Source: Patescibacteria group bacterium
Lineage (GTDB): Bacteria; Patescibacteriota; Patescibacteriia; UBA2196
Length of the DNA: 64,000 nt
Reading direction: 5' to 3'
NCBI GenBank assembly: GCA_028748975.1
Contig: JAQTPI010000006.1
Span: forward strand, 366-64,365
Shown: one piece after another, positions 20,144-62,149 of the stretch
Layout of the letters: each line of letters opens with the position of its first letter
How positions within the stretch are numbered: the first letter of the stretch is position 1
Made by a program: the position numbers and the translations under genes
Notes under the pieces: generated by a model
What the model was told of the DNA's origin: nothing
The model's database searches: none
Seen by the model: the letters and a program-made list of their open reading frames with translations, nothing else

Positions 20144-20818
20144 ATGGCTCCCTTCCATCTCAAAAAAATCCAACCCCAAAGTGACACCGGCCGCCTGCTT
20201 AAACTTCAAAGAGAGCGGCTGGGTTTGTCTTTGGAAACAATCTCACGCCAGCTGCAAATCAATAAAAACTATCTGGAAGCCATTGAAGAAAGCGCCTGGT
20301 ACAATTTGCCCGGCGAATTCTATGTCACCACTTTTACCAAAAAATATGCCCTGGCCTTGGATTTAAAATGGGAAAAGCTCAAAAAAAATTTCGAAGCCGA
20401 AATAAAATCAACGCGCGGTTTGCTTCGCGATAAAAATTTAAACGCTCCCTCAAAAAAAATCAGCAGCCTGATTCTGCCTCGGCTCATCCGCAAATTTATT
20501 ATTTTTTTAATCGTTCTGTCTCTGCTAACTTATCTTGGGACACAAATCTGGCGCGTAACCGCTCCGCCCAAATTGGTTGTTTTAAATCCAATGGAAGAAC
20601 GCTCTATTCAAAACTCTCCGACCTTAACCATTACCGGCCAGACCGACCCCAAAGCCAAAATCAAAATCAATTCTCTGGAAGTTTCCCCCGATGACACCGG
20701 CTATTTTTCCGCCACTCTTGACTTATCCTACGACTTAAATATAATAAAGGTAGAAGCCAAGAAAAAATATTCCCGCAGCACTATCATAACGAGGAATGTG
20801 GTGTATAATAAAAATTAA
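20144..20818 (+). CDS. rodZ: RodZ-like HTH (XRE-type) single-pass membrane protein
   Basis: N-terminal HTH LGLSLETISRQLQINKNYLEAIEE, central TM helix FIIFLIVLSLLTYLG, and a C-terminal periplasmic domain. Confidence 0.55.
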   Translation: MAPFHLKKIQPQSDTGRLLKLQRERLGLSLETISRQLQINKNYLEAIEESAWYNLPGEFYVTTFTKKYALALDLKWEKLKKNFEAEIKSTRGLLRDKNLNAPSKKISSLILPRLIRKFIIFLIVLSLLTYLGTQIWRVTAPPKLVVLNPMEERSIQNSPTLTITGQTDPKAKIKINSLEVSPDDTGYFSATLDLSYDLNIIKVEAKKKYSRSTIITRNVVYNKN

Positions 20819-20877
20819 TTTCTAATTTCTAATTTCTAATTTTTAAACGATTTTTAATGACTTAATTTCTAATGACC

Positions 20878-20910
20878 GAGGTTCGGTTTTTGCCTCTGGC
20901 AAAAACCGAC
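20878..20910. repeat. same palindrome core, ~35 nt upstream of recA
   Basis: GGTTCGGTTTTTGCCTCTGGCAAAAACCGAC. Confidence 0.6.
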
Positions 20911-20944
20911 ATATTAGAAATTAAAAATTAAAAATTTTACTTTT

Positions 20945-27389: not shown

Positions 27390-27540
27390 AAGATCAATGC
27401 GAATTAGTAGCGAATTACCAGCGAATTATGCGAATAAGCGCAGAATAATCTGTTCGCAAAATTCGCACAAAATTCGTAAGTAATTCGCATATAAATTACT
27501 TATAAGTATCTTATCATGTCTTGAAATTCTTGGCAAGTCC

Positions 27541-28599
27541 TTAGGTATTCACGTGAAAATAAACTGTGTCCCCGTCTTTTATCTCATAATCCTTGCCTTC
27601 CAGCCGCACCAGGCCTTTTTCTTTTGCCTTAACCCAGCCGCCCACCTCCACGAATTTCTCCCAAGGGCAAACCTCTGCTCGAATAAATCCTTTAATAAAA
27701 TCAGTATGAATCACCCCGGCCGCTTCCGGCGCTTTGGCGCCTTTCACCACAGTCCAAGCGCGCGTTTCTTTTTCGCCCGAAGTCAAAAAAGTTACCAGAT
27801 TCAAAATTTCATAACTTTTAATGATTAATTTTTCCAAACCGGTGTGTTCAATCTTCAATTCGCGCAAATAATCTTTCAGCTCGGCTTCTGGCAATTCGGC
27901 CAATTCCGCTTCCAGTTTGGCATTCACAAACAGCGCGCCATCCTTGATTGTTTCCGGCGCGAATTTTTCATCCACGTTGTAGACAAAAATAATCGGCTTA
28001 GCTGTCAGCAAATTTAATTCTTTGATTATTTGTTTTTCGTCATCGTGTTGCCACTCAATTTCATTGGCCAGTTTGCCTTCATCCAATTTTTCTTTTAATG
28101 TCTTTAAAACACCTAACATTTTTAAAGAATTTTTATCACCCGCTTTGGCCTCTTTTTGTGCCGTGCTTAATCTTTTTTCCACGGTTTGCAAATCCGCCAT
28201 GGCCAATTCCAAATGAATGATGCTCTTGTCGCGCTCGGCATCCACCTCGCCTTCCACGTGAATTATATTTTTGTCTTCAAACTCGCGCAATACTTCCACA
28301 ATGGCATCAGTCTCGCGAATATGGGAGAGAAATTGGTTGCCCAGCCCCTCGCCCTGATGCGCGTTTTTAACCAGCCCCGCGATATCTACAAATTCAATCG
28401 TGGTCGGAATAATTTGCTTGGATTTGGAAATTACTGCCAGTTTTTCCAAGCGCTCATCGGGTACCTCAACCACGCCGACATTGGGATCAATGGTGCAAAA
28501 AGGATAATTGGCAATCTCAATTTGTTTTTTCGTCAGCGCCTTAAACAGGGTGGATTTGCCCACATTCGGCAAGCCGACAATTCCAATCTTAAAAGACAT
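27541..28599 (-). CDS. ychF: ribosome-binding ATPase YchF
   Basis: GIVGLPNVGKSTLF, NYPFCTIDPNVG, and a C-terminal TGS domain. 352 aa. Confidence 0.9.
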   Translation of the reverse strand: MSFKIGIVGLPNVGKSTLFKALTKKQIEIANYPFCTIDPNVGVVEVPDERLEKLAVISKSKQIIPTTIEFVDIAGLVKNAHQGEGLGNQFLSHIRETDAIVEVLREFEDKNIIHVEGEVDAERDKSIIHLELAMADLQTVEKRLSTAQKEAKAGDKNSLKMLGVLKTLKEKLDEGKLANEIEWQHDDEKQIIKELNLLTAKPIIFVYNVDEKFAPETIKDGALFVNAKLEAELAELPEAELKDYLRELKIEHTGLEKLIIKSYEILNLVTFLTSGEKETRAWTVVKGAKAPEAAGVIHTDFIKGFIRAEVCPWEKFVEVGGWVKAKEKGLVRLEGKDYEIKDGDTVYFHVNT

Positions 28600-28803
28600 A
28601 AACGGGTAATAAGTAATAAGTAACTAGTAATCAGGGGCGACGTTGCGACCATCTCCCCCTTAACAAGGGGGAGAGCGAGGGGGTAGATCGCCGATAGGCG
28701 AATATAATTATTTTTCTCCCTTTACTCTACCTTAATTTTCTAATAAAATCAAATAAAAAAGGCTGAGAACTTGACTCAGCCATAAATATCTACCAAACAA
28801 ACC

Positions 28804-29091: not shown

Positions 29092-29145
29092 TTATTCCTC
29101 CTTGGTTAATTTGTGTATCCTCATCTTATCTTAAGAAAAAAACAT

Positions 29146-29190
29146 TGTCAAATAAAAAATAAAAACGCCGATCACTGGTGTGATCGGCGT
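29146..29190 (-). terminator. rho-independent terminator of the Ubl gene
   Basis: Perfect hairpin CGCCGATCAC-ACCAG-TGATCGGCG followed by TTTTTATTTTTT on the minus strand. Confidence 0.8.
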
Positions 29191-29635: not shown

Positions 29636-29737
29636 AAAAATTAAGGCTCCACTTCACCTTAGCGTAATAAAAAAAACTTGTCAAATATTAATTAAGGTTC
29701 TACTTTACCCTAGCGCAGTAAAAAAAGTTTGTCAAAC
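29636..29737 (-). promoter_or_regulatory. two tandem copies of the cluster-specific promoter/leader module upstream of the Ubl gene
   Basis: On the minus strand: TTGACA-N17-TAAGGT and TTGACA-N17-TAGGGT, each followed by the conserved GAACCTTAA leader box. Confidence 0.55.
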
Positions 29738-31474: not shown

Positions 31475-33445
31475 TTATTTTTTTGCCTTTTCTACAATTG
31501 GCCAGTTATCAATATGCTGGCCCATGGGATCGTTATAATTCGCCGATTCCAAAAAAACAATGCACATAATCAATAATGGCATGAAATCAAAACGGGCAAT
31601 CAATTGCGGTAAAACTTCTTCCATCTCGGCGCCCAGACAGGCATGGCCATCCTCAAATACGTGGGGAGCATTGTGTCCGCCTATCTTTTGCGTCAAATTA
31701 AAAAATCTGATTTGGTTGCAATCGCCATTAAGCGGAATAACAATCCGGAAAGCGCCAATCAAGTGTATTTGGTCTTTTCTCGGATGTTTGCAGAATAAAA
31801 TATCAGTATCCACTATTAACTGGTTTTTGATGCAGCTGACTTTTCTTATCTTTTCCAATTGCCGCATTTTTTCAAAATCAATGGCAAATTGCTTCCGGTA
31901 AACTCCGCCATCCTTCTTCTTGCCATCCGCCACCTCTTTTAAGGCATCGTATTTTCTAATCGCGGTCACCAGTTGGATTTGCAAACTGTTTACCCGGTTG
32001 GCCACTTCCGTCAATTCTTCCTTGGCGTCCTTAATAATTGACTCTTTATTTTGCAGACAAGTGTTGGCGTAGGCCTGTCCTTGTGCTGTCCGCATCTTGG
32101 CTTCCTGTTTTTGTCTTTCCGCTGTTGTGCTTGTTAAAAGACTGGCCACGGCTTGCATCAACTTTTTAAAAATCTTTTTATATTCTTCGTCCGCTCCCAA
32201 AATAGGGAAGGGAATATAAAGATTTCTGCCCGCTATGATTTGTCCGGCCTCTTGGCCGTCCTCATCATATATTATTTTCCCTTCGTTGGTAATCTGAAAA
32301 GATCCGCTTTTGGTTGGCAGAGGAATTCTCCAAAGCTGTTTGGGTGTTAAAAACCCCTGTCTGATGCTTTCCGTTGGCGCGGCAAAAAAATAAATATGAA
32401 ACATGTTGTCATAGCGCGGCAGGTCTCTCATCCGAAACTCGCCTCCGCCGTTATGCAAACAGATGCTCCGCCTAATCTTTGTCATTAATTCCCGGCTGAT
32501 GATGGGCGCGTAAACACGCCTGACTAATTCCAGCTCTCTGCTGTTAAAACCCCCAGAATCAATTACCATCGACCTGTCTATCTCTATGCCCTCCAGTTTT
32601 TTGGAGTCTTTCTTTTTTTCCGGTTCCACTGCTTTAACTGGCCGCCGAAACCTTTTCAGTTGGGAAAAAACTTCCGGCGCCACCACCGCTTCCAGAATTT
32701 TTCTAAAAATAGTAAGTTCTGACTCGCGGCCATAATGACACAGGTCGTGAAAAATATAAAGAGTGTTTTCGCCCACCAGCTCGGCCACCGCATATCTTTT
32801 GTCTCTAATCACTATGCCTTGGCCGCTGGGTGCGAAAGATTCATCATCACAAGCCACCCTTGTTCCCCAAATCTTCTCAGGTGTCTGGGTTTCCGTGTCA
32901 CCGCTTTCTGACGGGGCCGACCAAATGCGGATATGGAAAACATCGCCTTCAGCCGGGCTGGTATGTTTTCGATGCGGCACGCTGATGACAATTTCTGTTC
33001 CAATTTTTGGTAAAAGAATTTCTTTGGCTAATTTACGAAATCGGCTGCTGCCCTCGCCGTTCCAATCTTTGATTTTCACCTGGCAATCAGCGCCTCTGTC
33101 TTTTTTTGAATTATCAAAAATTACTCTTTGTATGATTCTTTTTTGTTCCTTGGTGATGGCCGAAGTGTTTTTCCACCATTTTAAATCATCGCCCTTGGCA
33201 TATTCCGGATCCAAACCGGTTATCTCCGCAATCTCCAGTTTAAAAACTCCGGTGATCTCGGTTGGTAATTCTGCCAAACTCATTTTTTTTAGGGCTCTTA
33301 ATCCCTGGCTTAACTGTGTTTCGTCCAAAACAATGCCTTTTTTACTGCCCATCTCAAAGTCGGCAAAAATGACCTTTTGGGCATTTAAAGCCGCTTTTTT
33401 ACTCTCGTCAATAGCTGGCAAAAAATAATTTCTCACCACTTCCAT
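31475..33445 (-). CDS. large paralog 1 (656 aa): internal duplicated domain, coiled coil, C-terminal UBC/E2-like domain with putative catalytic Cys (GHACLG)
   Basis: RBS AAGGAGG. C-terminal FRIVIPLNGD...IRFFNLTQKIGGHNAPHVFEDGHACLG...LLIMCIVFLESANYNDP aligns with the UBC-fold pattern F.L.I.FP.DYP...HPN...G.ICLDIL...LLSICSLL.DPNPDDP. Confidence 0.6.
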   Translation of the reverse strand: MEVVRNYFLPAIDESKKAALNAQKVIFADFEMGSKKGIVLDETQLSQGLRALKKMSLAELPTEITGVFKLEIAEITGLDPEYAKGDDLKWWKNTSAITKEQKRIIQRVIFDNSKKDRGADCQVKIKDWNGEGSSRFRKLAKEILLPKIGTEIVISVPHRKHTSPAEGDVFHIRIWSAPSESGDTETQTPEKIWGTRVACDDESFAPSGQGIVIRDKRYAVAELVGENTLYIFHDLCHYGRESELTIFRKILEAVVAPEVFSQLKRFRRPVKAVEPEKKKDSKKLEGIEIDRSMVIDSGGFNSRELELVRRVYAPIISRELMTKIRRSICLHNGGGEFRMRDLPRYDNMFHIYFFAAPTESIRQGFLTPKQLWRIPLPTKSGSFQITNEGKIIYDEDGQEAGQIIAGRNLYIPFPILGADEEYKKIFKKLMQAVASLLTSTTAERQKQEAKMRTAQGQAYANTCLQNKESIIKDAKEELTEVANRVNSLQIQLVTAIRKYDALKEVADGKKKDGGVYRKQFAIDFEKMRQLEKIRKVSCIKNQLIVDTDILFCKHPRKDQIHLIGAFRIVIPLNGDCNQIRFFNLTQKIGGHNAPHVFEDGHACLGAEMEEVLPQLIARFDFMPLLIMCIVFLESANYNDPMGQHIDNWPIVEKAKK

Positions 33446-33464
33446 GCTTCTTCCTCCTTTTAAG

Positions 33465-33541
33465 CTGGGTTTTTAAGGTTCATCTTCACTGTTTTTAGTG
33501 AATAGCTAACCTTAGCAAAACTAAAAAACCTTGTCAAGTAA
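33465..33541 (-). promoter_or_regulatory. promoter/leader module of paralog 1
   Basis: Minus strand: cTTGACA-N17-TAAGGT, hairpin TTCACT-N6-AGTGAA, GAACCTTAAAAACC box, AAGGAGG, ATG. Confidence 0.55.
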
Positions 33542-33601
33542 TAAAATAAATAAAAAACGGTCTGCTTTGCCAGCAGGCCGTTATCTTGAAAACATTTATT
33601 T

Positions 33602-35563
33602 TTATTTTTGTTCCGTAACTATTGGCCAGTCCGCCACCCGCTCTCCGGCGCTCGCCTGGCCCTCTGCCGTTTCCAGAAAAATAAGACACATGGTTATCAA
33701 TGGTCCAAAATCAAACCGGGCGATTAATTGCGGTAAGATTTCTTGCAGCTGGCTGCCAAAGTAAGCCTGGCCATCCGGCGCCACGTTGGGAGCATTAAAT
33801 TCGTTAACCCGCCGTGTCAGATTAAAAAATCTGATATCCTCGCAATTGCCCCAAAAAGGGATAAAAATCTGGAAAGCGCCAATCAGGCGTGTTTCTTTTT
33901 TGCTGTAGAAAAGAGTGTTGGTCTCCACTATAAGACAATCCGGGGTGAAAGTAATCTGCCTTATCTTTTCCAGTCGCCCCATTTTCTCAAAATCAGCGCT
34001 AAACTTCTCTTGGTCGCCACCCTTTCTTTTGCCCTCGGTTGCTTCCTTCAGCGCATCATGCTTTCTGATGGCCGCTATCAACTGTGTTTGAAAATTTTTG
34101 ATTTGCCTGGTAATATCCACAAACTCAGCCGCGGCATCTTTCTTGATCAAATCTTTATACTGCCAACAAATGGCGGCATAAGCTTTTCCTTTGGCTGCCC
34201 GCATTTCTTCTTCCCACTGCTGCCTTTCCGCTGCCGTACTGGTAAAAAGCCTGGCCACTTCTGCCATTAAACAGGTAAAAATCCGTTGCAATGTTTTTTG
34301 GTCGGAAAATAAAAAAAATGGAATATAAAGATTTCGGCCGCCGATAATTTGCCCGACTCTTTGTCCAGCATCATCATAAACCATTACCCCTTCCCTGGTA
34401 ATCGGGCAAGGGTTATTCCCGGCCGGCAAACTAATGCCCCATAATTTATTTGATGAAGAAAATTGTCTGCCCGCCATTGAATTGGTAAAAAATATATGAA
34501 ACACCTCGTCATAAAAAGGTAATGGCTGTTGTCTTATGCTCCTATTTTTATGCAGGCAAACGCCGCGCTTAATTTTTGCCATTAATTCCCGCGCGATAAT
34601 TGGAGCATAAACTTTTCTAGCCAAAGCGCATTCTTCTGAGCTAAACCCCGGTAATTCCATCGTCAGTGTTTTATTTATATCTATTTTTTTGCTTTCCAAT
34701 TCTTTTGATTTTGTTTCTTTTTTTACTGGAGCTGGCCGCCGAAACCTTTTCAGTTGGGAAAAAACTTCCGGCGCCACCACCGCTTCCAGAATTTTTCTAA
34801 AAATAGTAAGTTCTGACTCGCGGCCATAATGACACAGGTCGTGAAAAATATAAAGGGTGTTTTCGCCCACCAGCTCGGCCACTGCGTAGTTGTTTGTCTT
34901 GTCTTTAATAACTAGGCCAAGGCCGCTCGCTGGAAAAGATGCGTCACCGCAAGCCACTTCTGTTCCCCAGATAGTTGGGGGTGTGCGAACCTCTCTGGAT
35001 CCGCTCTTCAATGGTGCCGACCAGATGTAGATATAAAAATTATCATCTGCAACCGGTTCTTTTTGGTCTCCATGTGGCACGCTGATAAAAATGTTTGTTT
35101 TAATTCTGGGCCAAAGAATTTCTTCGGCTAGCTGGCAATAATCTTCGCTGTTACTGCGTCCGTCCCAATGATCAACTGTCACAAAACCCGACCCATCCTC
35201 CTCTTCTATTGTTTCTTCTTTTTTCAAACTCTCACCAATCTTTTCCTGTAAAAATCTCCGTTGCTCTGCCGCCAGGGTGTAGCTATTTTTGCACCACCTC
35301 AAATCATCGCCTTGGGCATATTCCGGATCCGCCCCTGTGATGTCAATGGTCAAAAGCTTGAAAGCTCCCTCAATCCCGGTGGACAGTTCCGCCAAGATTG
35401 CTTTGTTTAAAGCTCTCAATCCCTGAAGTAATTGGGTTTCGTCCAAAATAATGCCCTGTTCGCCTCCCAGTTCAAAATCGGCAAAAATGACCTTGTGGGC
35501 GTTTAAAGCTGTTTTTTGTGCCGCATTGACAGCTGCTAAAAAATAGCTTCTGACAACTTCCAT
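33602..35563 (-). CDS. large paralog 2 (653 aa): same architecture, E2-like active-site Cys/His replaced (DGQAYFG)
   Basis: 52-aa block identical to paralog 1. C-terminal domain is present but lacks the Cys and the NYNDP motif. Confidence 0.6.
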   Translation of the reverse strand: MEVVRSYFLAAVNAAQKTALNAHKVIFADFELGGEQGIILDETQLLQGLRALNKAILAELSTGIEGAFKLLTIDITGADPEYAQGDDLRWCKNSYTLAAEQRRFLQEKIGESLKKEETIEEEDGSGFVTVDHWDGRSNSEDYCQLAEEILWPRIKTNIFISVPHGDQKEPVADDNFYIYIWSAPLKSGSREVRTPPTIWGTEVACGDASFPASGLGLVIKDKTNNYAVAELVGENTLYIFHDLCHYGRESELTIFRKILEAVVAPEVFSQLKRFRRPAPVKKETKSKELESKKIDINKTLTMELPGFSSEECALARKVYAPIIARELMAKIKRGVCLHKNRSIRQQPLPFYDEVFHIFFTNSMAGRQFSSSNKLWGISLPAGNNPCPITREGVMVYDDAGQRVGQIIGGRNLYIPFFLFSDQKTLQRIFTCLMAEVARLFTSTAAERQQWEEEMRAAKGKAYAAICWQYKDLIKKDAAAEFVDITRQIKNFQTQLIAAIRKHDALKEATEGKRKGGDQEKFSADFEKMGRLEKIRQITFTPDCLIVETNTLFYSKKETRLIGAFQIFIPFWGNCEDIRFFNLTRRVNEFNAPNVAPDGQAYFGSQLQEILPQLIARFDFGPLITMCLIFLETAEGQASAGERVADWPIVTEQK

Positions 35564-35584
35564 GTTTCTGCCTCCTTTTCCATT

Positions 35585-35660
35585 AAATTTTTAAGGTCTG
35601 TTTGCTTCACTCTACTGGTGAATATTTCAGCTTAGCAAAACTTATCCCGCCTGTCAAGTT
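35585..35660 (-). promoter_or_regulatory. promoter/leader module of paralog 2
   Basis: TTGACA-N17-TAAGCT, hairpin TTCAC...GTGAA, CAGACCTTAAAAATT box, AAGGAGG. Confidence 0.55.
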
Positions 35661-35795
35661 TATTTTCTAAATAAAAATATAACAAAAAATAAAAAAACGG
35701 TCCAATAATTCGCCAGTTAGCGAATCGGACCGTTTGTTGAATTTTGAATTTTTATTATTTTTCGCTCAGTTTAAATATTTAAATCCAGACGAATC

Positions 35796-37790
35796 TTAGC
35801 TGGTTTTGCGTTTTCCTTTGTCCGCTTCCTCTTGTCCTGTTTTTACCAGCGGCCATTGATCAACATGTCTGCCGATATCATCAAGGTTCGCTGATTCCAA
35901 AAAAATAATGCACATAATAACAATTGACGTGAAATCAAAACGAGCCATCAGCTCTGGTATAATTTCATGCATCTCCCTGCCCAGACAGGCATGGCCGTCA
36001 GCATATACGTGGGGAGCGTTCATTCGGCTGTCATGCGCATTAATCAGCTGTGTCAAGTTAAAAAATCTGAGATCATTGCAGCTGCCCTTAAAAGGAATAA
36101 CGATCTGAAAAGCGCCGATCAGGCGTATTTCTTTATTAGTAGGGTGCTGGTAATAAAGAATATCAGTCTCCACAATCAGGTGGGTCTTGGTGAAAGAAGC
36201 CCATCTTATCTTGTCCAGTTGCCCTATTTTCTCAAATTCAGCGGCAAATCTCTCTTGATATAATTCTTTGCCCTCCTTTTTGTCCTCAACTACTCCTCTT
36301 AAAATATCCTGCCTTCTGTTGGCCGCTACCAATTGCGTTTGCAGATTTTTTATTTGGCTACCAGTCTCAGTCAGTTCCTGGCCGGCAGTTTCTTTTTTAA
36401 TTTTGGCAAGAATCGCCTCTTTGTAGTTTTGGCAAACACGAGCATAAGTTATTTTTTGAATTGCCATCAGCCCGGCTTCCCGCTGCTGCCTTTCGGCCGC
36501 CGTGCTCTTTAAAAGCCAGTTTACTTCTTCCAATAAACGAATAAAAAACTCTTTGTTTTCTTTGGTCTCAAAAGTTAAATAAAAAGGAAGGTAGAGATTG
36601 TTGCCATTAATGAGCCAAGCCACGACTTGGCCTTGGTTGTCATAAATCGCCCTTCCCTTGTTTAAGATCACTAGGGAGTTCTTGGGGTTATCCAATTTTA
36701 TGTTGATTCCCCAAGGCGTCGGTGGACTCAATGGCGCGTTTTTAATTGCCAGTCCCGGCGAGGCTCCCAAAAAAACATGGAACATATTATCATAAAAAGG
36801 CTGAGTTTTTTTGCCAAATTCCCCGCCATGTAAACACACGTTTCTTTTAATGACTGGGGTCAGCACCTGTTTAACTATCTTGGCTGCTTCTCCGTAAAGT
36901 CTTTCAAAAAAAATTCGTGAAGAAAAATCATTTGCGCCAGCTATGAAAACTTCTTGATCCAACCAATCAGCTGGTTTTTTTTCTTTTTCTTTCACTGCCA
37001 AGGCCTCAATAATAGCCATGGTTCTGGCGATTCCCTCTTCAAATATTCTTAACTCGTTTTCATCCCCGTTGTGGCTACAAATATCATGATGAAAATACAA
37101 ATTATTCATGCCGATTAATTCGGCTACCGCGTAGCCCGTGGCTTCATCCACCAGCGAAACTCCCAGACCACTGTCCACCGTACCAATACCACGATCTGAC
37201 ACTTCAATTCCCCAAATACTCTCCGGGGGACTCTTTGTGTTATGGCTTCCGCAACTGGGAGCGGCATGAAGGTGGATATAAAAATCCGAACCCAAAATCG
37301 GATCTGTCCAACCAGATTGTTTATGGATCTGGACCTTCTTTTTTATTTTTGGAGTTATGTTCTTCATTGCCAGCCGGGTAAAAGAATTGTCATCCGGCCA
37401 TTTCCGCCAATCTTGCCGAGCCGCCTTAATCCAATTTATTTCTCCTTCTCGCTCTTGTTCCGGCGGACATAAATAATTAAATAATAATTCCTTTGCCGCC
37501 TCCGGAATCTTCAAAATATTTTTGTACCAGTTCAATTCCTCTCCGGCTTCATAACCAGCATCGGGTTCCATCGGAACTAACAGAGTTTGATAAACTCCTC
37601 TCGCCCCAGTTGGTTGTTCCCAAAGTATGGCTTTTCGCAGCCGCAGTAAACAATGTTTAATTTGTGTCTCCTCAACCAAAATTTTTTGTCCATCTCCTGG
37701 TGTGACTCTGGAAAATTTCACGCCCTGCTGGGTTAAAAATGCCTCTTCCTCTCTGGTTACCATTAAAAGGAATTTTTTTGGTTCTTCCAT
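35796..37790 (-). CDS. large paralog 3 (664 aa): divergent member with intact E2-like motif NAPHVYADGHACLG...FLESANLDD
   Basis: Colinear with paralogs 1 and 2 at about 35-40% identity outside the conversion tract. Same promoter/leader module upstream. Confidence 0.6.
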   Translation of the reverse strand: MEEPKKFLLMVTREEEAFLTQQGVKFSRVTPGDGQKILVEETQIKHCLLRLRKAILWEQPTGARGVYQTLLVPMEPDAGYEAGEELNWYKNILKIPEAAKELLFNYLCPPEQEREGEINWIKAARQDWRKWPDDNSFTRLAMKNITPKIKKKVQIHKQSGWTDPILGSDFYIHLHAAPSCGSHNTKSPPESIWGIEVSDRGIGTVDSGLGVSLVDEATGYAVAELIGMNNLYFHHDICSHNGDENELRIFEEGIARTMAIIEALAVKEKEKKPADWLDQEVFIAGANDFSSRIFFERLYGEAAKIVKQVLTPVIKRNVCLHGGEFGKKTQPFYDNMFHVFLGASPGLAIKNAPLSPPTPWGINIKLDNPKNSLVILNKGRAIYDNQGQVVAWLINGNNLYLPFYLTFETKENKEFFIRLLEEVNWLLKSTAAERQQREAGLMAIQKITYARVCQNYKEAILAKIKKETAGQELTETGSQIKNLQTQLVAANRRQDILRGVVEDKKEGKELYQERFAAEFEKIGQLDKIRWASFTKTHLIVETDILYYQHPTNKEIRLIGAFQIVIPFKGSCNDLRFFNLTQLINAHDSRMNAPHVYADGHACLGREMHEIIPELMARFDFTSIVIMCIIFLESANLDDIGRHVDQWPLVKTGQEEADKGKRKTS

Positions 37791-37811: not shown

Positions 37812-37884
37812 GGTTTTTAAAGTTCGTTTTCACTTCTTAAAGTGAGTACTTTAACTTAGCAAAATTAAAAAGAGTTGTCAAGTG
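37812..37884 (-). promoter_or_regulatory. promoter/leader module of paralog 3
   Basis: TTGACA-N17-TAAGTT, hairpin TCACTT...AAGTGA, GAACTTTAAAAACC box, AAGGAGG. Confidence 0.55.
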
Positions 37885-37948
37885 AGAAAAAATCAAAAAC
37901 CGTTCCGACACAATGTCGGAACGGCTCTTGTTTTTTGAAAAATCAAAA

Positions 37949-38829: not shown

Positions 38830-40716
38830 CTATTCACTAATCGTCGCCTCCGTCGTCGTTGAGAGCGTCCCTTTCTCCACCCCAATCAAACACACTGCCT
38901 GCCACGGCCGGTAAAGCGAGTGCCAGTTTTCTTTTTTCTCCGTGCCATCAACCATAGTCACGATTCTTTCCAAATCCGTTTCCGCGCCATTATGCGCCGT
39001 TTCCGTGCACTTTTTTACACCCACTGCCAAATCTTCCGTTTCCACATATTTAGTCGGCCCCGGCGCCGTGATATTATAGATCGTTGTTTTTTTCACTTCC
39101 ACCTGGCGGCCGTCGCTTGTTCCCCAAAATTCAAAGGTTATTTCATTGCCTTCAATTCTTGTTTGTAATAATAAATTACTGCCAGTGTCATTTTTAAATC
39201 TCAAATCCGGATGCGGACTATAAATTGTCGCGTCCATGCCGGCCGGTTCATAGTAAACCACGCGGTAAGCATGCGGATATCTTTCCAAAATTGGCAGTCC
39301 CGCGTCCAAGGCTACCCGAAACATGGTGGTGGCAATTTGGCACAGTCCGCCGCCAAATTCCGGCACCGTTTTATTGCCCTTGATCACCAATTCCGGCAAA
39401 TAACCGGTGGCGCCGCTAATTTCTCCCAAAGCCGTATTTAAAGAAAATTCTTCAGCCGGCGCGATAATCAAACCATTTAGGGACGCGGCACCGGTCTTAA
39501 TATTATGAATTCTGTTTTTGGGTGAACCGCTAAAATTTGACTGGCCCACCCCCACGATTTCTTTGATGCCCAAATCATTAACATCGCCGGTTAAATTTTT
39601 CACTGGAATTTCTTTGGTGTAAATCACTGAACGCGGCTTTGGCAAATTCAATAAATTAAATTCCCATTGCGCCAAAGTTTTTTCCAAATCAATCTCAATC
39701 CCCGCTTGGGATGCCTGAAATTCCACCACTCGTCCGTTTTGCATCATAATTTTTGGTTCCCGCGCCTCCACCTCAATTTCCGCGGTTAGTGGCTTTAAAA
39801 TTTCCCAAAAAACCGCGTTATCAAAACCCAGGTATGGTTTTTGTTGTTTTTCATCCCATTTCAAAACCAATCCTTTTTTAACATCTTCTTTTAATATCGG
39901 CCATTCTTTTGCCAAGGGCTGGCGCAACCAACTGCGAGTGATGGTGGCCGTCAGAAAAAAACTTTCTTTGTTTAAAACCGATTCCATTAAAGGTATTAGT
40001 TGTTCTCCGGCTGCCAAAGAAATTTTCGGCTCCACTTGAATTTTTTTAAGTTCAATCGCTACCAGATTACCCATTCTTAATTGTTTTTTAAATTGCTTTA
40101 TGGCGCTCTCATAATCCAATTCTTCGCCTGCCTGTCCCGCCACAATTTCTGGCTGGTTGTTTTGATAACTAATATTTGTCTCGCGCGCGCCGGACACCAA
40201 ATCGCCAAAATTTGTTTTCAGGGCTTTTTTTAATTCTTCTTCCGCTACCTGATTTATCCAAATAAAATTAACTCGCGAAAAAATAGTCCGCAATCGCTCC
40301 CAAAAATTTGCCAAAAAAAATCCCTGCCGGCCAAAGTGGAAAGCTTGGTTCAAAATATCTTCGGTTTCCACGTTGTAAATTTTATATGATAAATCCGGGT
40401 CGCTGGTGGAAACTGAAATCGGCAGCACCGCCACTTTTCTTTCGCCATAAATAAAAGTAACCCCCTCCTGTTCCAGCTTGCCAACTTTTTCCGTTACCAT
40501 TTGACCGGCCTTGTCATAACTTAAGCCGCCCACATTCACTCCGCCAATGCTGATATTGGGAAAAAACCGGCCGACATAAATTTGTTCCAAAGCCAAAGTC
40601 GTCCCTGCTCCCAGAATCAACAAAATTAAAAAAACGGTCAGCGTCGCCACCAACCAGGAAGGAATTCGGTATTTTTCCTTTTTTTCTTTCAAAAATTCTT
40701 TGGTTTTTTCTATCAT
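38830..40716 (-). CDS. VanW-family protein with N-terminal TM anchor
   Basis: TM helix near the N-terminus. C-terminal VanW-like region with GGGLCQIATTMFRVALDAGLPILERYPH. 628 aa. Confidence 0.65.
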   Translation of the reverse strand: MIEKTKEFLKEKKEKYRIPSWLVATLTVFLILLILGAGTTLALEQIYVGRFFPNISIGGVNVGGLSYDKAGQMVTEKVGKLEQEGVTFIYGERKVAVLPISVSTSDPDLSYKIYNVETEDILNQAFHFGRQGFFLANFWERLRTIFSRVNFIWINQVAEEELKKALKTNFGDLVSGARETNISYQNNQPEIVAGQAGEELDYESAIKQFKKQLRMGNLVAIELKKIQVEPKISLAAGEQLIPLMESVLNKESFFLTATITRSWLRQPLAKEWPILKEDVKKGLVLKWDEKQQKPYLGFDNAVFWEILKPLTAEIEVEAREPKIMMQNGRVVEFQASQAGIEIDLEKTLAQWEFNLLNLPKPRSVIYTKEIPVKNLTGDVNDLGIKEIVGVGQSNFSGSPKNRIHNIKTGAASLNGLIIAPAEEFSLNTALGEISGATGYLPELVIKGNKTVPEFGGGLCQIATTMFRVALDAGLPILERYPHAYRVVYYEPAGMDATIYSPHPDLRFKNDTGSNLLLQTRIEGNEITFEFWGTSDGRQVEVKKTTIYNITAPGPTKYVETEDLAVGVKKCTETAHNGAETDLERIVTMVDGTEKKENWHSLYRPWQAVCLIGVEKGTLSTTTEATISE

Positions 40717-40730
40717 ATTATTCTTTTTGT

Positions 40731-40983
40731 GTCATCCTGAGCGAAGGTCCGATGGACATCGGACCGGAGTCGAAGGATCTCGTTGTTTTATAAAAAAATA
40801 TAAGGATATAGAGATATAAAGATATAAGCGACCAGCCTGTTATATCCTTATTTCCTTATATCTTTATTATTTATCGCTTTGGCCACGGGATTCCCTGCCT
40901 CGCCTGACGCTCGCCTCGATTCGGCGAAGCGGGCGAGTCAAGGCGGGCTTCCTCTCCCGAGTACTCGGGATCGTCAGGATGAC
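40731..40983. mobile_element. complete MITE-like element (~253 bp) with terminal inverted repeats GTCATCCTGAG / CGTCAGGATGAC
   Basis: The two ends are reverse complements. The interior carries the ATATAAGGATATA palindromic sub-repeat and a GCGAAGCGGGCGAG sub-repeat seen elsewhere. Confidence 0.6.
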
Positions 40984-40998
40984 AACTACTTAAAAAGT

Positions 40999-41220
40999 TT
41001 ATTTCTCCAAAATCTCATTTATCAATTCTTTGGCCAACTTTCTTCTTTCCTCCTCTGCCGTAGCTTCATTAGAAACTGTTAGACGCAAAACCGCACCTTC
41101 TTTCACTTCTGCCGGCAAATTTTTTATCGGCCAAATAATTTCTTTGCCATCATCAAAAACCAGCACCGCACTCGTGCCCTCAAACCGGTCAATCGTGACT
41201 TGGCGTTCATAATTTTCCAT
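40999..41220 (-). CDS. small hypothetical protein (73 aa, DUF3006-like)
   Basis: Intact ORF. Weak recollection of the DUF3006 family. Confidence 0.4.
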   Translation of the reverse strand: MENYERQVTIDRFEGTSAVLVFDDGKEIIWPIKNLPAEVKEGAVLRLTVSNEATAEEERRKLAKELINEILEK

Positions 41221-41950: not shown

Positions 41951-42111
41951 AAAAAAATATGGTGTCATTCTGACCCCGCCAATGCGGGGAGAGAATCTCT
42001 TTGTTTCTGTCTTATCCAGAAACAATTAATTTATAACTTTATTATACACCACTATTTGACAAAAATCCAAAAAAGGACTAAGCTTTTTCTATCATAATTC
42101 ACTCTAACCTG

Positions 42112-46878: not shown

Positions 46879-47088
46879 TCTTCCTCCTTTTTTATTTAGT
46901 TTAAAAGAACCTACACTTAACTTAGCTTATTTTTCTTTTTTTGTCAAAACTATAAATTATTGCTACTATTATTTTATTAATCATTCGCAAAATTCGCCCG
47001 CCTCGACTCGCGTCAGATGCTCGCCTCGATTTAGCGAAGCGGGCAAGTCGACGCGAGGCGGGCCTATGATTCGCAAAATTCGCAATAT

Positions 47089-48120
47089 ATGAAAATTTTA
47101 GCTATTGAAACCTCCTGTGATGAAACTTCTGCCGCCGTGCTCAATCTTGAGCGCGGCCAGTTTAATTTGCTAAGTAATATTGTTTCCTCTCAAGTTAAAA
47201 TTCACGCTAAATTCGGCGGCGTGGTGCCGGAAGTGGCGGCACGGATGCAAATGGAAATGATTCTGCCGGTGATTGATGAATCCTTAATCGCTGCTAATAT
47301 AAAATTAAAAAATATTGATTATTTAGCTGTCACTTATGGTCCGGGTTTAATTACTTCTCTCACTGTTGGTGTGGAAACTGCCAAATCTTTGGCCTTTGCC
47401 CTAAAAAAAACACTCATCCCCACCAACCATCTGGCTGGCCATCTCTTAGCAAATTTTCTACCCAACAAAAAAATTACTGACATAAAATTTCCAGCACTTG
47501 GTCTGATTGTTTCCGGCGGACACACTCTTTTGGTTTTAATGAAAAACGAATCCAATTATAAAATTATTGGTGAAACCCTGGATGATGCCGTGGGCGAGGC
47601 CTTTGATAAAGTCGCCAAAATTTTAAATCTTGGCTATCCCGGCGGCCCCATTATTTCCAAACTAGCCAATAATGGCAATTCCGTCGCTTTTAATTTTCCG
47701 CGCCCGATGCTGAACTCTGGCGATCTTAATTTTTCTTTTTCTGGTCTGAAAACAGCCGTGTTCTACACATTAAAACATAAAAACATTAAAACATTAAAAC
47801 AAAAAGAAATAAACGACGTTTGTGCTTCATTTCAGGTGGCATGCGTCGATGTTTTAACTATTAAAACATTACGAGCGCTCCAAATTCATCAACCAAATTC
47901 ATTTCTCTTGGGCGGCGGTGTAGCTGCCAATCCCACCTTGCGCCAGCGCCTTCAAGAACAAATTAATAAAAATTTTCCTAAAATCAAAATTTTCATTCCC
48001 GAACTGCGTTTTACCGGCGATAACGCGGGAATGATCGCCGCCGCAGGATATTTTCAAGTTAAAAAAAGTAAATTCGCTAATTTCAAAAAACTGAAAGCCA
48101 ACCCAAATTTATCACTTTAA
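47089..48120 (+). CDS. tsaD: tRNA N6-adenosine threonylcarbamoyltransferase TsaD (Kae1/YgjD)
   Basis: MKILAIETSCDETSAAV, HLAGH metal-binding and GGGVAAN motifs. 343 aa. Confidence 0.9.
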   Translation: MKILAIETSCDETSAAVLNLERGQFNLLSNIVSSQVKIHAKFGGVVPEVAARMQMEMILPVIDESLIAANIKLKNIDYLAVTYGPGLITSLTVGVETAKSLAFALKKTLIPTNHLAGHLLANFLPNKKITDIKFPALGLIVSGGHTLLVLMKNESNYKIIGETLDDAVGEAFDKVAKILNLGYPGGPIISKLANNGNSVAFNFPRPMLNSGDLNFSFSGLKTAVFYTLKHKNIKTLKQKEINDVCASFQVACVDVLTIKTLRALQIHQPNSFLLGGGVAANPTLRQRLQEQINKNFPKIKIFIPELRFTGDNAGMIAAAGYFQVKKSKFANFKKLKANPNLSL

Positions 48121-48250
48121 TAAATTACAAATCACAAGCACCAAAATACAAACAAATCTCAAATATCAATAACCAAATTACAAACGCGACGGTTTAGGAT
48201 TTGAGATTTGGTGCTTGGAATTTGTTTGTTATTTGGAATTTGGTGCTTGG
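48110..48250. repeat. large hairpin element, copy 2 (between tsaD and tsaE)
   Basis: Left arm ATTACAAATCACAAGCACCAAAATACAAACAAATCTCAAATATCAA. Right arm is its imperfect reverse complement. Confidence 0.55.
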
Positions 48251-48261
48251 TGCTTAAAAAT

Positions 48262-48729
48262 ATGCTCTCTCATTCCCCCTCCCAAACCAAAACCATTGCC
48301 AAAAAACTTGCCTCTCAGTTAAAACCCGGCGCGGTTTTGGCTTTGGTCGGTGATCTCGGCGCCGGCAAAACCCATTTTGTCAAAGGTTTGGCTGAATATT
48401 TTGGCATTAAAAAAAATATTACTTCCCCGACTTTCGTTTTATTGAAAATTTATCCAATAACTAAAGTTTATCCCGAGCGAGCGGAGCGAGCCGAGGGATC
48501 TCGTAATAGAAATAAAATTAAAAAATTAATTCACCTTGACTGCTATCGCCTCAGTCATCCTGACGAACTTCTCGCCATCGGCTTCCGGGAATTTTTACAA
48601 GATAAAAATTGTTTGGTTGTAATTGAATGGGCCGACAAAATCAAAACTCTCTTGCCGAAAAATACCACTTGGCTAAAATTCAGTTTAGGCCAGAAAGAAA
48701 ATGAAAGAAAAATTGAAATCAAAAAATAA
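48262..48729 (+). CDS. tsaE: tRNA threonylcarbamoyladenosine biosynthesis protein TsaE (YjeE), with a ~14-aa in-frame insertion derived from a MITE-like element
   Basis: P-loop GDLGAGKTHFVKG. Start placed at MLSHSP, because upstream is a hairpin repeat. Residues YPERAERAEGSRNR are encoded by the repeat at 48466-48507. Confidence 0.75.
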   Translation: MLSHSPSQTKTIAKKLASQLKPGAVLALVGDLGAGKTHFVKGLAEYFGIKKNITSPTFVLLKIYPITKVYPERAERAEGSRNRNKIKKLIHLDCYRLSHPDELLAIGFREFLQDKNCLVVIEWADKIKTLLPKNTTWLKFSLGQKENERKIEIKK

Positions 48730-49622: not shown

Positions 49623-49750
49623 GTGTCATCCTGAGGCCGATATCACATCAGCCGAAGGATCCCCTGCGAACTTGGGGAGGTAGTATTTTTTACGCTTTTC
49701 CCATTTGCCACGGGGTCCTTCGTCCCGAGTAATCGGGACTCAGGACAGGT
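49623..49750. mobile_element. MITE-like element with GTCATCCTGAGG left TIR
   Basis: See 14386-14540. Lies between yraN and yebC. Confidence 0.55.
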
Positions 49751-50480: not shown

Positions 50481-50641
50481 TTTTGTTGGTTGTCATCCCG
50501 AGGAGTCACGCGACGAGGGATCTCGTAGTAACCCGCTCGGAATATTAAACTAAAGCTAATTTAACCTTATCATTTTAAAACACAAAAATCAAATAAAAAA
50601 GCGGGGCAAACTGAATTGCCACCGCCGTGTTATTTTAACTC

Positions 50642-50965: not shown

Positions 50966-51481
50966 AGCAACCCCTTATTTTTTATTTTCATTTTTTCCTC
51001 TTTACTTCATGATAAAAAATTGTGGTCAAAATGGCGAAATAGCCGTGTTCTGTGTCTGTGGTTTCTGATCTCTGAAACCGCTCCGTAATTTTGATATTAT
51101 TACCCATTTTTGTAAGCCATTTATTTACTTTTCTTTCGTGTGCCGCGGCTTTTCCGTCAGTCTGAAAATATTTTACTTGCTCCATTTTTTCCTCCTTTTG
51201 TGTGATTTTGGCACGATTGCCATTTTTTAATAAAGATCCTTATTCGTCTTAATCCTAACGCACTTATAATTTTATGTCAAAGGATAAAAATACTTGATTT
51301 TTTAATACAAAAATTCTATACTAAAACTTGGGTTTTGTTATTTGCCTGCCCGCTTCGAGTCGCGAAGCGAGTCGGGTGGGTGTTTTGAGCTTTGTTCAAG
51401 CTGGAGTGGCGGAATTGGCCCGCCTCGACTCGCCTCGCTTGTCGAGGCGAGGCGGGTATACCTGCCCGCCATATGCCTTGA

Positions 51482-53246: not shown

Positions 53247-53566
53247 CCCAATAGTTTATCCCGAGCGACCCCGAGTACTTGGGGGAGTCGAGGGATCTCG
53301 TGGTTTGGTAAATTTTATAATAAAGATATAGGGATATAAGGATATATAAAAACAAGAAAAGCCCGCCCGAACGACTGCTGTCGTTCAGTCGGGCGGGCAA
53401 GAAAAAAGTAAAAAACATTTTTGTAAATACCTCACGATCGTGAGGTATTTACAAAATTAAAAATAAAAAAAGTTTGGTTATTTTCGCGGCCGCAATTTTA
53501 ATCAAACTTTTTTAATTTAAAAAAAACAGCCCCAAAGGAATCGTCCTTCGGGGCTTTTTGAAAATT

Positions 53567-55532: not shown

Positions 55533-55681
55533 GTCATTCCGAGCCACGCGCCAGCGGGCGAGGAATCTTGTAGAATACTAACAAATTTTTATTAAATTAT
55601 TGGTTTTATTGAATTATTGGATTATTATTCTCTTTACTCACGAGATCCTTCGTCCTCGCTCTCGCTCGTCCTCAGGATGAC
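55533..55681. mobile_element. complete MITE-like element (~150 bp) with TIRs TGTCATTCCGAG / CTCAGGATGACA
   Basis: The ends are reverse-complementary. Sits between divergent tyrS and the ROK kinase gene and extends both ORF-track calls. Confidence 0.6.
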
Positions 55682-56576: not shown

Positions 56577-56745
56577 AAATTCCAAATTACAAGCACCAAA
56601 TGCCAGCTCCGCTGGCATCCCGCAATTCTGCGGGATGGTTGTTAAAGCAACCACAAACAAATCTCAAATATCAAAATTCAAATTTCAAACAAATTGGCGC
56701 TCCGCGCCAACCGTTTGTTATTTGGAATTTGTAATTTGGTGCTTC
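56575..56745. repeat. large hairpin element, copy 3 (between the ROK kinase and PBP genes)
   Basis: Arms CCAAATTACAAGCACCAAA ... TTTGGAATTTGTAATTTGGTGCTTC. Central TTGGCGCTCCGCGCCAA. Confidence 0.55.
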
Positions 56746-59258: not shown

Positions 59259-59398
59259 CACCGCAGTGTCATCCTGAGCAACAGCGAAGGATCTCATTTT
59301 AAATTATAAAGCCGGGCCGACGAATGTCGGCCCGGCCTTTTGTTTTATTTATTATTATTCGGATACATTCGGAAAAAATTCGTACGGTATTCGGGAAG

Positions 59399-60824: not shown

Positions 60825-61038
60825 CTGCCGCCTTAAAAAAGTTTTGGTATAAAAGCGAGCTGAGTCGGAACGATTTTTGACCGCAGTCAAAAAAATTTTG
60901 CTTCTGTCTGACGCAGTTCCGCCGAGTTGAGCGCAACGAGGCGGAACAAGGAGTTAACAAAATTAGTGACGACGAGGCCGCTTTTGTCAAAACTTTTTTA
61001 CAGCGGCGCTTTTGGCGCCACCTTTATAAAAAGGTGGC
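60825..61038. repeat. structured ~215-bp intergenic element, copy 2 (between dnaN and the apt-MTAP gene)
   Basis: See copy 1. Confidence 0.7.
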
Positions 61039-61048
61039 TAAAAGAAAT

Positions 61049-62149
61049 TTACTGTTTAATCGGCATCACCAAATACATATATTTTTCCTCGCCCGCCGGA
61101 CGAAAAACAATCGGATTAGCCGCGGAATTGATGAAAATTCTGGTCTTATTGGAATTAATATTATTTAAACCATCAAGTAAAAACTTATAATTAAACACCA
61201 CCACCACATTGCCGCCTTTTTGCTCAGTTTTAATTTTAATGGTATTTTCGCCCACTTGGCTGTTAATCGCCTTAATCACCACCGCGGCATTAATAAATTC
61301 CAAGGTCACATCAAAAATTCCGGTCTTGGCAAACAAACTGGCCGCTTTCACCGCCTTAATTAATTCATTTGTTTCAATTTCCACCTCGGTGTTAAAATTG
61401 GCCGGCACCACCTGTTTATAATCCGGGTAATCACCTTCAATCAGGCGTGAAATCACCACTGTTTCCTCAAAATCAAACTTGACCTGGGTGTCTTCAAAAT
61501 CAATGGTAAAAAATTCATTTTCCATATCCAACATCACCCGCGAGAGTTCTTGGACTGATCTTAAGGGCACAATAATTTTTTCTTCTTTCACCTCTTCTTC
61601 TAATTCTATAATTTTCTCCGCCAAGCGGTAGCTGTTGGTAGCGGCCAAAATCAGATTTTTACCTTTAAAATTAAATAAAATTCCGGTTAATTCCGGCCGC
61701 GCTTCGTCAAAAGACGCGGCAAAAACCACCGCATTAAGTGCTTGTTTAAATTCGTTTAGTTTTATTTTATATTTCTTGCCGCCTTTCACTTCCGGAATTA
61801 AAGGATAATCATCAGCCGGATTGGTTTTGATTTTTGTCTGCCAATCTTCGCTCATCACATTTAATTCACCACTCACCTCCTCTAAATCAATGTTTTTATC
61901 ACTATTAATTAAATTAATATAGTCGGTGATAATTTTGGCCGGCACCGTAATTCGGCCTTCGCCCTCCACCTTGCCCCTGATTTGGGTTTTGACTCCAATT
62001 TCCAAGTTGGTAGCCGAAATTTCAATATTTCCTTTTTCCGCCTTGAATAAAATATTATTCAAAATCGGCAAGTTAAAATTTTTGCCGGTTAAATGAGAAA
62101 CCTTATTCAAACCTTTGATTAAATTTTCTTGTTTGCAAATTATTTTCAT
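61049..62149 (-). CDS. dnaN: DNA polymerase III beta sliding clamp
   Basis: Three-domain beta-clamp length (366 aa), MKIICKQENLIKGLN start, and position downstream of dnaA. Confidence 0.9.
   Translation of the reverse strand: MKIICKQENLIKGLNKVSHLTGKNFNLPILNNILFKAEKGNIEISATNLEIGVKTQIRGKVEGEGRITVPAKIITDYINLINSDKNIDLEEVSGELNVMSEDWQTKIKTNPADDYPLIPEVKGGKKYKIKLNEFKQALNAVVFAASFDEARPELTGILFNFKGKNLILAATNSYRLAEKIIELEEEVKEEKIIVPLRSVQELSRVMLDMENEFFTIDFEDTQVKFDFEETVVISRLIEGDYPDYKQVVPANFNTEVEIETNELIKAVKAASLFAKTGIFDVTLEFINAAVVIKAINSQVGENTIKIKTEQKGGNVVVVFNYKFLLDGLNNINSNKTRIFINSAANPIVFRPAGEEKYMYLVMPIKQ

Follow-up and report, generated by a model that had tools for sequence, protein, structure and literature searches.

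A 2025 study introduced the Ssn proteins as the first nucleases that are site-specific and cut solely single-stranded DNA (ssDNA) (Chenal et al., Nat Commun 2025; PMC11893778). SsnA, a 94-aa single-domain GIY-YIG nuclease, has as its target the NTS hairpin of Neisseria, CGTCATTCCCGCGMAVGCGGGAATCYRG, with dRS3 inside it; it binds NTS as ssDNA only and on one strand only, shows no RNA binding, and makes its cut on the 5' side of the hairpin, a few nucleotides away (PMC11893778). Cutting needs a 5' GTC and binding a 3' C, reported as the most important base for binding, and the loop is irrelevant (PMC11893778). The ssn gene, for a single-domain GIY-YIG protein of the cd10448 type, is typically flanked by repeats in an arrangement like that of an insertion sequence (IS). 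The published catalogue of these Ssn-related motifs (SRMs) was built mainly from Proteobacteria, counts Rickettsia among the SRM-rich genera and draws the analogy to the repetitive extragenic palindromic (REP) sequences and their REP-associated tyrosine transposases (RAYTs); Patescibacteria are not mentioned as hosts in the main text (PMC11893778). Here we analyze a repeat family in a 64,000-nt stretch of contig JAQTPI010000006.1 from a Patescibacteria group bacterium, a bacterial chromosome segment with housekeeping genes, which we refer to as the window. Based on sequence comparison, these repeats are probably (at a probability of roughly 0.8) a tandem-G·A variant of the SRM hairpin family that includes NTS and dRS3. 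The SRM family itself has already been described (PMC11893778), and what is new here is the tandem-G·A form of the Ssn repeats.

The window repeats resemble NTS and other SRMs in having a 5' (C/T)GTC head, a stem that begins with AT(T/C)CC and ends with GG(A/G)AT, a 3' C, strand specificity, a free loop, a mostly intergenic location, high copy number, and inverted copies around a single-domain GIY-YIG gene of about 94 aa. Like SRMs they are inverted repeats that can fold in ssDNA over 20–50 nt, with some window modules longer through nested hairpins; the 5' GTC and 3' C are found, as are inverted copies flanking a GIY-YIG gene, the latter in other genomes. Unlike in SRMs, the upper stem is made of invariant tandem G·A mismatches, often laddered, around a GNA triloop or nested hairpins, and the cognate nuclease belongs to a different clade, 57–75% identical across phyla. 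A second point of comparison is the intergenic mosaic elements of Neisseria (NIMEs), in which dRS3 (ATTCCC-N8-GGGAAT) alternates with lower-GC RS families in variable mosaic arrays at gene borders (PMC1797815). The window repeats share with these the mosaic of GC-rich hairpins and lower-GC spacer families, and differ in core sequence, in forming pairs instead of long arrays, and in belonging to an unrelated organism.

A preliminary description of this DNA had read the repeats as miniature inverted-repeat transposable elements (MITEs), with GTCATCCTGAG as the terminal inverted repeat (TIR) and GAAGGATC(T/C)CG in the interior. The family is real: GTCATCCTGAG with at most one mismatch has 9 matches in the window against 0.34 expected, a number reached in 0 of 100 shuffles, and all eleven coordinates listed at that time hold repeat sequence. 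When all of these copies are read, however, GTCATCCTGAG is not an element terminus and GAAGGATC(T/C)CG is not an interior; together they make up a single hairpin module, the former as its 5' half and the latter as its 3' half, and this module also occurs singly. A pattern combining the two halves has 13 matches in the window versus 1.3 in shuffles. The module is a strand-specific hairpin of 25–105 nt with the consensus (T)GTC-AYCCY-GA-N-[inner]-N'-GA-RGGRT-C(T/C). Our curated scan of the window found 18 modules, or about one copy per 3.6 kb, of which six are single (2019-2065 on the minus strand, 41964-41998, 48467-48501, 50492-50523, 53255-53298 and 59268-59294) and 12 form six inverted pairs that we call composites (13782-13938, 14385-14539, 17627-17816, 40731-40983, 49625-49749 and 55533-55681). 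The modules with their spacers and adjoining blocks are as follows.

1940-1959: stand-alone mini-hairpin AGTCCGATAAACATCGGACT, adjoining the 2019-2065 module
1970-2005: AT-rich TATATCCTTATATC spacer block, adjoining the 2019-2065 module
2019-2065, minus strand: single module GTC ATCCT GA G...C GA AGGAT CT, with an inner G·A ladder around a TCCGCC-GAGG-GGCGGA hairpin; sense, 14 nt 3' of the RNase Y stop codon
13782-13848, plus strand: module with a long inner hairpin, left arm of composite 13782-13938; 5' flank TCC instead of GTC; DNA fold z = -7.2
13912-13938, minus strand: minimal module GCCCT GA G CGAAAG C GA AGGGC
14385-14437, plus strand: module, left arm of composite 14385-14539; 5' flank ATA instead of GTC
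14438-14487: spacer CCCCTGCGAACTTGGG...TGCCACGGGG, with a homologue at 49663-49712
14488-14539, minus strand: module, stem GTCCT/AGGAC; inner part doubly nested (TCCGCC hairpin within a CCGAT hairpin); z = -7.4
17627-17663, plus strand: module with the third pair covarying (GA-A...T-GA); left arm of composite 17627-17816, flanked by divergent genes
17664-17771: AT-rich palindromic spacer with TATATCCTTATATC words; matches 40781-40879 in reverse complement at about 92% identity
17772-17816, minus strand: degenerate module, right arm of composite 17627-17816; TTT flank, one stem pair T·G
40731-40780, plus strand: module, left arm of composite 40731-40983; 15 nt from the start codon of an opposite-strand VanW-domain gene
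40781-40879: AT-rich palindromic spacer of composite 40731-40983
40880-40983, minus strand: right arm of composite 40731-40983, beginning right after the stop codon of the upstream minus-strand gene; 5' half GTCATCCTGAC, degenerate 3' half GGGAAT CCCGTGGCC, inner part a TCCCGAGTACTCGGGA hairpin plus a nested GC-rich 59-nt hairpin
41964-41998, plus strand: single module with a compensated ATTCT/AGAAT stem; z = -4.4
48467-48501, plus strand: module in frame within tsaE, encoding the peptide VYPERAERAEGSR
49625-49662, plus strand: module, one arm of the composite at the yebC/UPF0102 junction
49663-49712: spacer of composite 49625-49749, conserved in the related contig L123 and in 14438-14487
49713-49749, minus strand: module, other arm of composite 49625-49749, with a GTCCT/AGGAC stem; z = -4.9; 12 nt after the yebC stop codon
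50492-50523, plus strand: single module, 14 nt upstream of the opposite-strand yebC start codon
53255-53298, plus strand: single module with a TTT flank; sense, 11 nt after the ruvC stop codon
After 53298 to about 53350: AT-rich spacer block
55533-55568, plus strand: module, stem ATTCC/GGAAT (compensated); left arm of composite 55533-55681, flanked by divergent genes; adjoins the tyrS start codon
55643-55681, minus strand: module, right arm of composite 55533-55681; inner part GA-G-GA-C-GA-GC-GAGA-GC-GA-G-GA-C-GA, a pure G·A ladder
59268-59294, plus strand: shortest module of the window, 27 nt; sense, 13 nt after the stop codon of a class A penicillin-binding protein gene

In the composites, the 3' ends of the paired modules face each other over AT-rich spacers; the outer ends are TGTCA...TGACA and the sizes 130–260 bp. 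The appearance of a TIR element is confined to these six pairs and absent from the single modules; the TIR complementarity proposed earlier holds for the pairs as such, but each supposed TIR is itself self-complementary and six modules have no partner. The earlier copy list missed the pair at 13782-13938, and the match at 48554-48564 is nothing more than tsaE coding sequence (SHPDE). The sub-repeats formerly assigned to the element interiors do exist, yet the AT-rich TATATCCTTATATC blocks are spacers common to only some composites, and the GCGAAGCGGGCGAG blocks, which are GC-rich, form hairpins that are either nested or independent. Inside the module, the inner region is free; at its simplest it is a GNA triloop, and at its largest it consists of nested hairpins exceeding 60 nt. 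The minimal module GTCAYYCYGAGCGNAGCGARGRATC has a GCGNAGC mini-hairpin within the tandem G·A pairs, and several window modules (55643-55681, 2019-2065) repeat the G·A step as a ladder. DNA folding recovered the stem, the G·A loop and the inner hairpin in 16 of the 18 window modules; nearest-neighbour folding gives no credit to the ladder of 55643-55681, which is read from the sequence.

The pairing was assessed in a genome scan, with one genome per species, using the pattern GTCATYCYGAG-N(3-33)-CGARGRATC in which the Y and R positions are independent; more than 300 public loci were compared in all. Modules were found in at least 120 loci from at least 18 phyla, including Chloroflexota, Acidobacteriota, Nitrospirota, Planctomycetota, Bacteroidota and Verrucomicrobiota, with several proteobacterial classes, Bacillota, Patescibacteria, Omnitrophota and Cloacimonadota as further hosts, and about half of all modules across these loci occur singly. 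The stems are fully complementary in 185 of 187 modules, with the four stem types roughly equal in number. With the 3' half left free in the search, 239 of 252 stems are perfect, and T·G pairs (3) are outnumbered by C·A/A·C mismatches (12). Both tandem G·A/A·G steps are invariant among the scanned modules, while the pair that follows the G·A step covaries (218 G-C, 27 A-T and 10 C-G). The flanks T-GTC (5') and C-T/C (3'), neither of them imposed by the search, are conserved at 98–100%; 98% of modules have the 3' C, with T (75%) or C as the next base, and it is found in all 18 window modules, and GTC is carried by 238 of 258 modules. In a covariation count over 90 distinct 25-nt modules, 92.9% of cells are paired versus 83.1% after shuffling and two-sided changes number 96 versus 29.7, each exceeded by 0 of 500 shuffles, with slid controls reaching at most 0.16 against 0.42. 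The covariation, the strand-asymmetric G·A mismatches and the lack of tolerance for wobble pairs together argue for a structure in ssDNA, not a binding site in double-stranded DNA (dsDNA) or an RNA, and we conclude that the evidence points to the module being structured single-stranded DNA.

To search for a partner gene, we clustered the open reading frames (ORFs) of the at least 120 module loci all-against-all. The sole recurrent small neighbour of the modules is a GIY-YIG protein of about 95 aa; apart from it, only common metabolic families recur in these loci, with no recurrent transposase among them. In four genome loci (Saccharibacteria, Gracilibacteria, Cyclobacteriaceae and L082), its gene is bracketed by inverted modules, so closely that only 0–4 nt may separate the left module from the ATG, while in some cases the stop codon is provided by the right module. 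The bracketed protein matches only PF01541 (GIY-YIG) in Pfam; NCBIfam has no specific model for it, and a sequence search found no solved structure. It is 46% identical over its full length to the product of gonococcal ssnA, with conservation of Y6, Y17 and E64, the residues that Chenal et al. mutated, and the gonococcal ssnA locus is flanked by canonical NTS. Approached from the protein side, 73 of 80 metagenome loci encoding homologues 57–73% identical to the Saccharibacteria protein have at least one strict G·A-type module, upstream of the gene in 45 of 76, downstream in 49 of 72, and on both sides in 31 of 68. G·A-type modules also flank the GIY-YIG gene on Planktothrix and Spirosoma plasmids. 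It is from this module-bracketed SsnA homologue that the window family is assigned to the SRM (NTS/dRS3) system. The G·A-linked Ssn clade is unusually conserved, with 67–75% identity between phyla among the matches listed.

This gene also decides whether the repeats could be REP or REPIN elements that owe their mobility to a RAYT, the RAYTs being Y1 HUH transposases of the IS200/IS605 type. The logic is similar, as both are dispersed extragenic ssDNA hairpins with an asymmetric 5' flank, inverted doublets, mosaics and no target-site duplication, and in both the cognate gene is single-copy and flanked by repeats. Yet the 5' head is TGTC instead of GTAG or GTGG, the bracketed gene encodes a PF01541 GIY-YIG nuclease and not a Y1_Tnp protein, Ssn has no known strand-transfer activity, and no further recurrent gene is found near the modules. 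The Pfam assignment of the bracketed gene refutes REP/RAYT membership, which we regard as the least probable explanation of these repeats.

Several ssn loci have further features. On the contigs that encode protein P0124 (L346-L354), a G·A-clade ssn is located at a fixed locus adjoining type IV pilus genes for a prepilin peptidase, a pilin with an N-methylation motif and a PilC-type platform protein, a neighbourhood that fits the DNA-uptake link proposed for Neisseria SsnA. On the Planktothrix agardhii plasmid NZ_LR882964.1 (L206), the Ssn-type GIY-YIG gene at 601-885 is bracketed by G·A-type modules in a defence-island setting, flanked by an MmeI-type restriction-modification gene and DISARM drmA. 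The same plasmid has at 925-1000 three copies of GTTCTCCTGTGC-TGTCATTCTGA with a period of 23, and locus L021 has at 4120-4245 (minus strand) seven copies of CCCCCC-TGTCATTCTGAACG with a period of 21. Both are tandem 5' half-modules that include the upstream flank, with one complete module at each array's end, and have the look of sequence produced when the hairpin repeatedly caused breakage or slippage.

The published SRM search pattern, HGTCWYN(0-2)YYVSBRHN(0-5)WNVSBRGN(0-2)RNCYNB, separates the G·A type from the described repeats. In the G·A-type modules, the VSBR/VSBRG stem positions of the pattern are taken by GA-N/N-GA. Hairpins flanking the proteobacterial Ssn homologues (Rhizobium, Azospirillum, Sphingobium, Aeromonas and Neisseria) are fully paired and match the pattern, whereas Spirosoma, Planktothrix and the 80 metagenome loci together have 218 G·A-type matches versus one match to the published pattern. 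Because fully paired and G·A hairpins are split by Ssn clade, the G·A type would form a separate specificity class with its own nuclease clade. The modules are also common in IMG/VR, with G·A-type modules in at least 120 stretches of contigs classified as viral (L207-L326), which may be true phage genomes or prophage and host flanks; copies beyond the window thus exist in both collections. None of these viral-classified stretches has an Ssn-like gene near the modules.

Several observations weigh against assigning the window repeats to the SRM family. The published pattern matches the NTS consensus, but the window has no site for it, and of 238 G·A-type modules it matches 0. Only 10 of the 18 window modules carry GTC, and the eight others lack the bases reported as essential for cleavage; these may be copies that can be bound and not cut, or decayed ones. 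An Ssn-like gene was found neither in the window, which covers 64.0 kb of the 65.1-kb contig, nor on the contigs of relatives (tblastn to E 10, best E-value 0.25). The two ssn genes looked up are each single-copy at a fixed locus, which gives no sign of Ssn itself moving the repeats; in copy number and location ssn resembles domesticated RAYTs more than an active IS. Finally, single modules within 60 nt of a stop codon in the genome loci are in sense orientation 25 times and antisense four times. This is a transcription-related orientation bias that an ssDNA nuclease target alone does not predict, and it suggests either a secondary role in the transcript, as for REPs, or insertion tied to the exposed non-template strand.

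The same bias is the main support for a reading of the module as an RNA element, either a 3'-untranslated-region hairpin acting as terminator or mRNA stabiliser, comparable to the secondary role of REPs in E. coli, or a protein-bound RNA structured by G·A pairs. Within 30 nt of the stop codon the ratio of sense to antisense single modules is 13:0, compared with 25:4 within 60 nt, and five window modules begin 11–14 nt past a stop codon. Tandem G·A pairs are stable in RNA too, which counts for this explanation. However, G·U pairs in the outer stem are no commoner than C·A mismatches, and the 3' flanks (CTCG/CCCG) have no consistent U/T tract. Rfam at gathering thresholds found only two tRNAs in the whole window, and a permissive search of 40700-41000 returned only noise. 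Modules are also located antisense upstream of genes (50492, 40731), between divergent genes (17627-17816, 55533-55681) and within tsaE. Near-identity across phyla and the tie to one nuclease clade are not expected of a terminator, and SsnA shows no RNA binding (PMC11893778). We therefore consider an RNA element unlikely, although less so than the other alternatives weighed in this study.

Comparison with relatives shows turnover of modules and composites by gain, loss and duplication, at gene junctions and even in frame within genes. Composite 49625-49749 fills the yebC/UPF0102 junction both in the window and in L123, a relative with 89% identity. The site is empty in L121, L122 and L327; in the relatives that are 83%, 78% and 77% identical, yebC and the UPF0102 gene either overlap or have 1 nt between them. 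In a relative at 79% identity, the site holds an unrelated palindrome. The single module at 50492-50523 is kept in L121, present as a fully paired NTS-like hairpin in L328, and absent from L123, L327, L329 and L122. Within the window, composites 17627-17816 and 40731-40983 are inverted copies with spacers about 92% identical, and composites 14385-14539 and 49625-49749 have a common spacer that is about 85% identical. In these comparisons, stem bases and spacers are kept while inner hairpins are swapped outright within a small repertoire, sometimes nested, so that the composite interiors are mosaic instead of conserved. Template switching between copies is one possibility for this swapping.

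The repeats were previously placed between genes, and this holds for most copies but not for the one at 48466-48507, which lies in frame within tsaE (48262-48708, plus strand), where the module at 48467-48501 adds about 14–17 residues. Contig L121 (9407-9907) has an insert at the same place in tsaE with a different inner part (YPERSSVATEQAEGS). At 13912-13938 (minus strand), the module encodes the C-terminal tail ...ALSESEGPQ... of a nusB-like ORF (13891-14376), and the repeat has therefore altered the end of a housekeeping gene. Palindromic repeats in frame within genes of a reduced symbiont genome are reportedly known from the Rickettsia palindromic elements of Ogata et al. (2000), said to be about 100–150 bp long. 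The tsaE module is like these elements in its in-frame position and unlike them in length and sequence.

These dynamics bear on whether the composites are classical MITEs, that is, deletion derivatives of an IS whose TIRs are bound as dsDNA by a DDE-type transposase encoded elsewhere, with target-site duplications made on insertion. Their size of 130–260 bp, the inverted TGTCA...TGACA ends of the six composites, their intergenic and multicopy nature, the duplicated composites within the window and the orthologous sites found empty or filled are all as in MITEs. In contrast, target-site duplications, which the preliminary description had proposed to look for, were found neither at the flanks of the six composites nor at the filled versus empty yebC junction. 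Each arm is a self-standing hairpin, with about half of the modules single across the genome loci, and the stem covariation together with the invariant G·A steps marks a single-strand structure, not a double-strand binding site. The autonomous transposase partner that had been anticipated was likewise not found as a recurrent neighbour in the at least 120 loci clustered, the only associated gene being the GIY-YIG nuclease, which falls in no recognised transposase family, instead of a DDE enzyme. The MITE interpretation is thus partly supported, in that appearance, copy number and presence/absence dynamics fit and the mechanism does not; as an account of origin, the classical-MITE reading is already largely refuted and very improbable. 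The closest analogues are REP sequences and bacterial interspersed mosaic elements (BIMEs) with RAYTs, along with the Neisseria NIMEs, rather than DDE-type MITEs.

If the SRM assignment is correct, the SsnA biochemistry (PMC11893778) suggests how the modules may work. When DNA becomes single-stranded, the hairpin would form on one strand only; Ssn would bind the stem base and the 3' C and cut a few nucleotides 5' of GTC (PMC11893778), and the inner region would be free because loop content is irrelevant to Ssn. Single modules and inverted pairs over AT-rich spacers build up a NIME- or BIME-like mosaic that mimics a MITE. Spread would be REP/RAYT-like, in that the nuclease gene is single-copy and the hairpins are many and dispersed. 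More tentatively, the G·A hairpin and its unusually conserved Ssn clade could form a horizontally spreading selfish element, a GIY-YIG-based analogue of insertion sequences. Single hairpins and MITE-like doublets would in that case be non-autonomous derivatives invading gene junctions and reading frames in reduced Patescibacteria genomes and viral contigs, and the swapping and nesting of inner hairpins might reflect an undescribed hairpin- or Ssn-driven process of template switching or loop insertion. We regard this extension as possible but doubtful.

Module sequence strings searched in the literature gave only unrelated primer matches. Two known motifs were considered and rejected: a hammerhead core (CUGANGA...GAA), for which CUGANGA fits only some copies and stem I is missing; and a K-turn or box C/D motif, for which the 3-nt bulge is absent.

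The window has other repeats in addition to the modules. A direct duplicate of about 230 nt (6654-6887 and 60825-61056) is 91% identical, ends in a terminator-like hairpin and has no Rfam match. Its differences cluster in two hairpins whose arms are exchanged compensatorily, one of which is a GTTCCGCC-GA-[variable]-GA-GGCGGAAC stem; the duplicate may represent either a small RNA with two copies or a further hairpin element of mosaic type. At least four more AT-rich, word-like intergenic repeat families (AATTTCTAATTTCTAA; TAATCAGAAATAAGTAATCAG; CAAGCACCAAAATACAAAC; TTCGCAAAATTCGCA) often form long inverted pairs or local hairpins. They are located at 14781-14900/26827-26946, 20817-20936 and 63916-63972; at 4545-4584, 13050-13086, 20106-20137 and 28597-28636; at 3855-3979, 48116-48256 and 56653-56744; and at 10279-10315, 27397-27490 and the flanks of 46985-47090. 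Similar word repeats fill the same intergenic sites in the relatives L123, L327 and L329. GC-rich long hairpins GCCCGCCTCGACTCGC...GCGAGTCGAGGCGGGC are found at 46985-47090, 51340-51470 and 40895-40950, both stand-alone and nested in the right arm of 40731-40983, and the DNA fold of 51335-51475 has a z-score of -5.2. Promoter-like blocks on the minus strand (TTGACA, about 17 nt, TAnnnT; repeat families D4, D7, D10 and D16) are located upstream of minus-strand genes at 16087-16128, 29121-29162, 29654-29737, 33498-33548, 35618-35659 and 37842-37892. Coding repeats include three tandem paralogous genes of about 655 aa (31475-37790, minus strand) with DNA blocks 70–98% identical, and a 726-aa ORF (10406-12586, minus strand) with internal tandem repeats of about 280 nt that are 95% identical (11317-11857).

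A second specificity class of Ssn repeats, defined by tandem G·A mismatches, would escape the published pattern while occurring in at least 18 phyla and in viral contigs and being dense in a Patescibacteria genome. As the G·A class is unmatched by that pattern, present counts of SRM repeats and of the genomes that carry them would be underestimates. The G·A-type nuclease and its site would be a candidate reagent pair for ssDNA tools. The empty and filled sites, the duplicated composites, the tsaE insertion and the hairpin swaps bear on the question of repeat mobility. The location of one ssn gene beside type IV pilus genes fits the proposed link to DNA uptake, which may be relevant to DNA-scavenging episymbionts.

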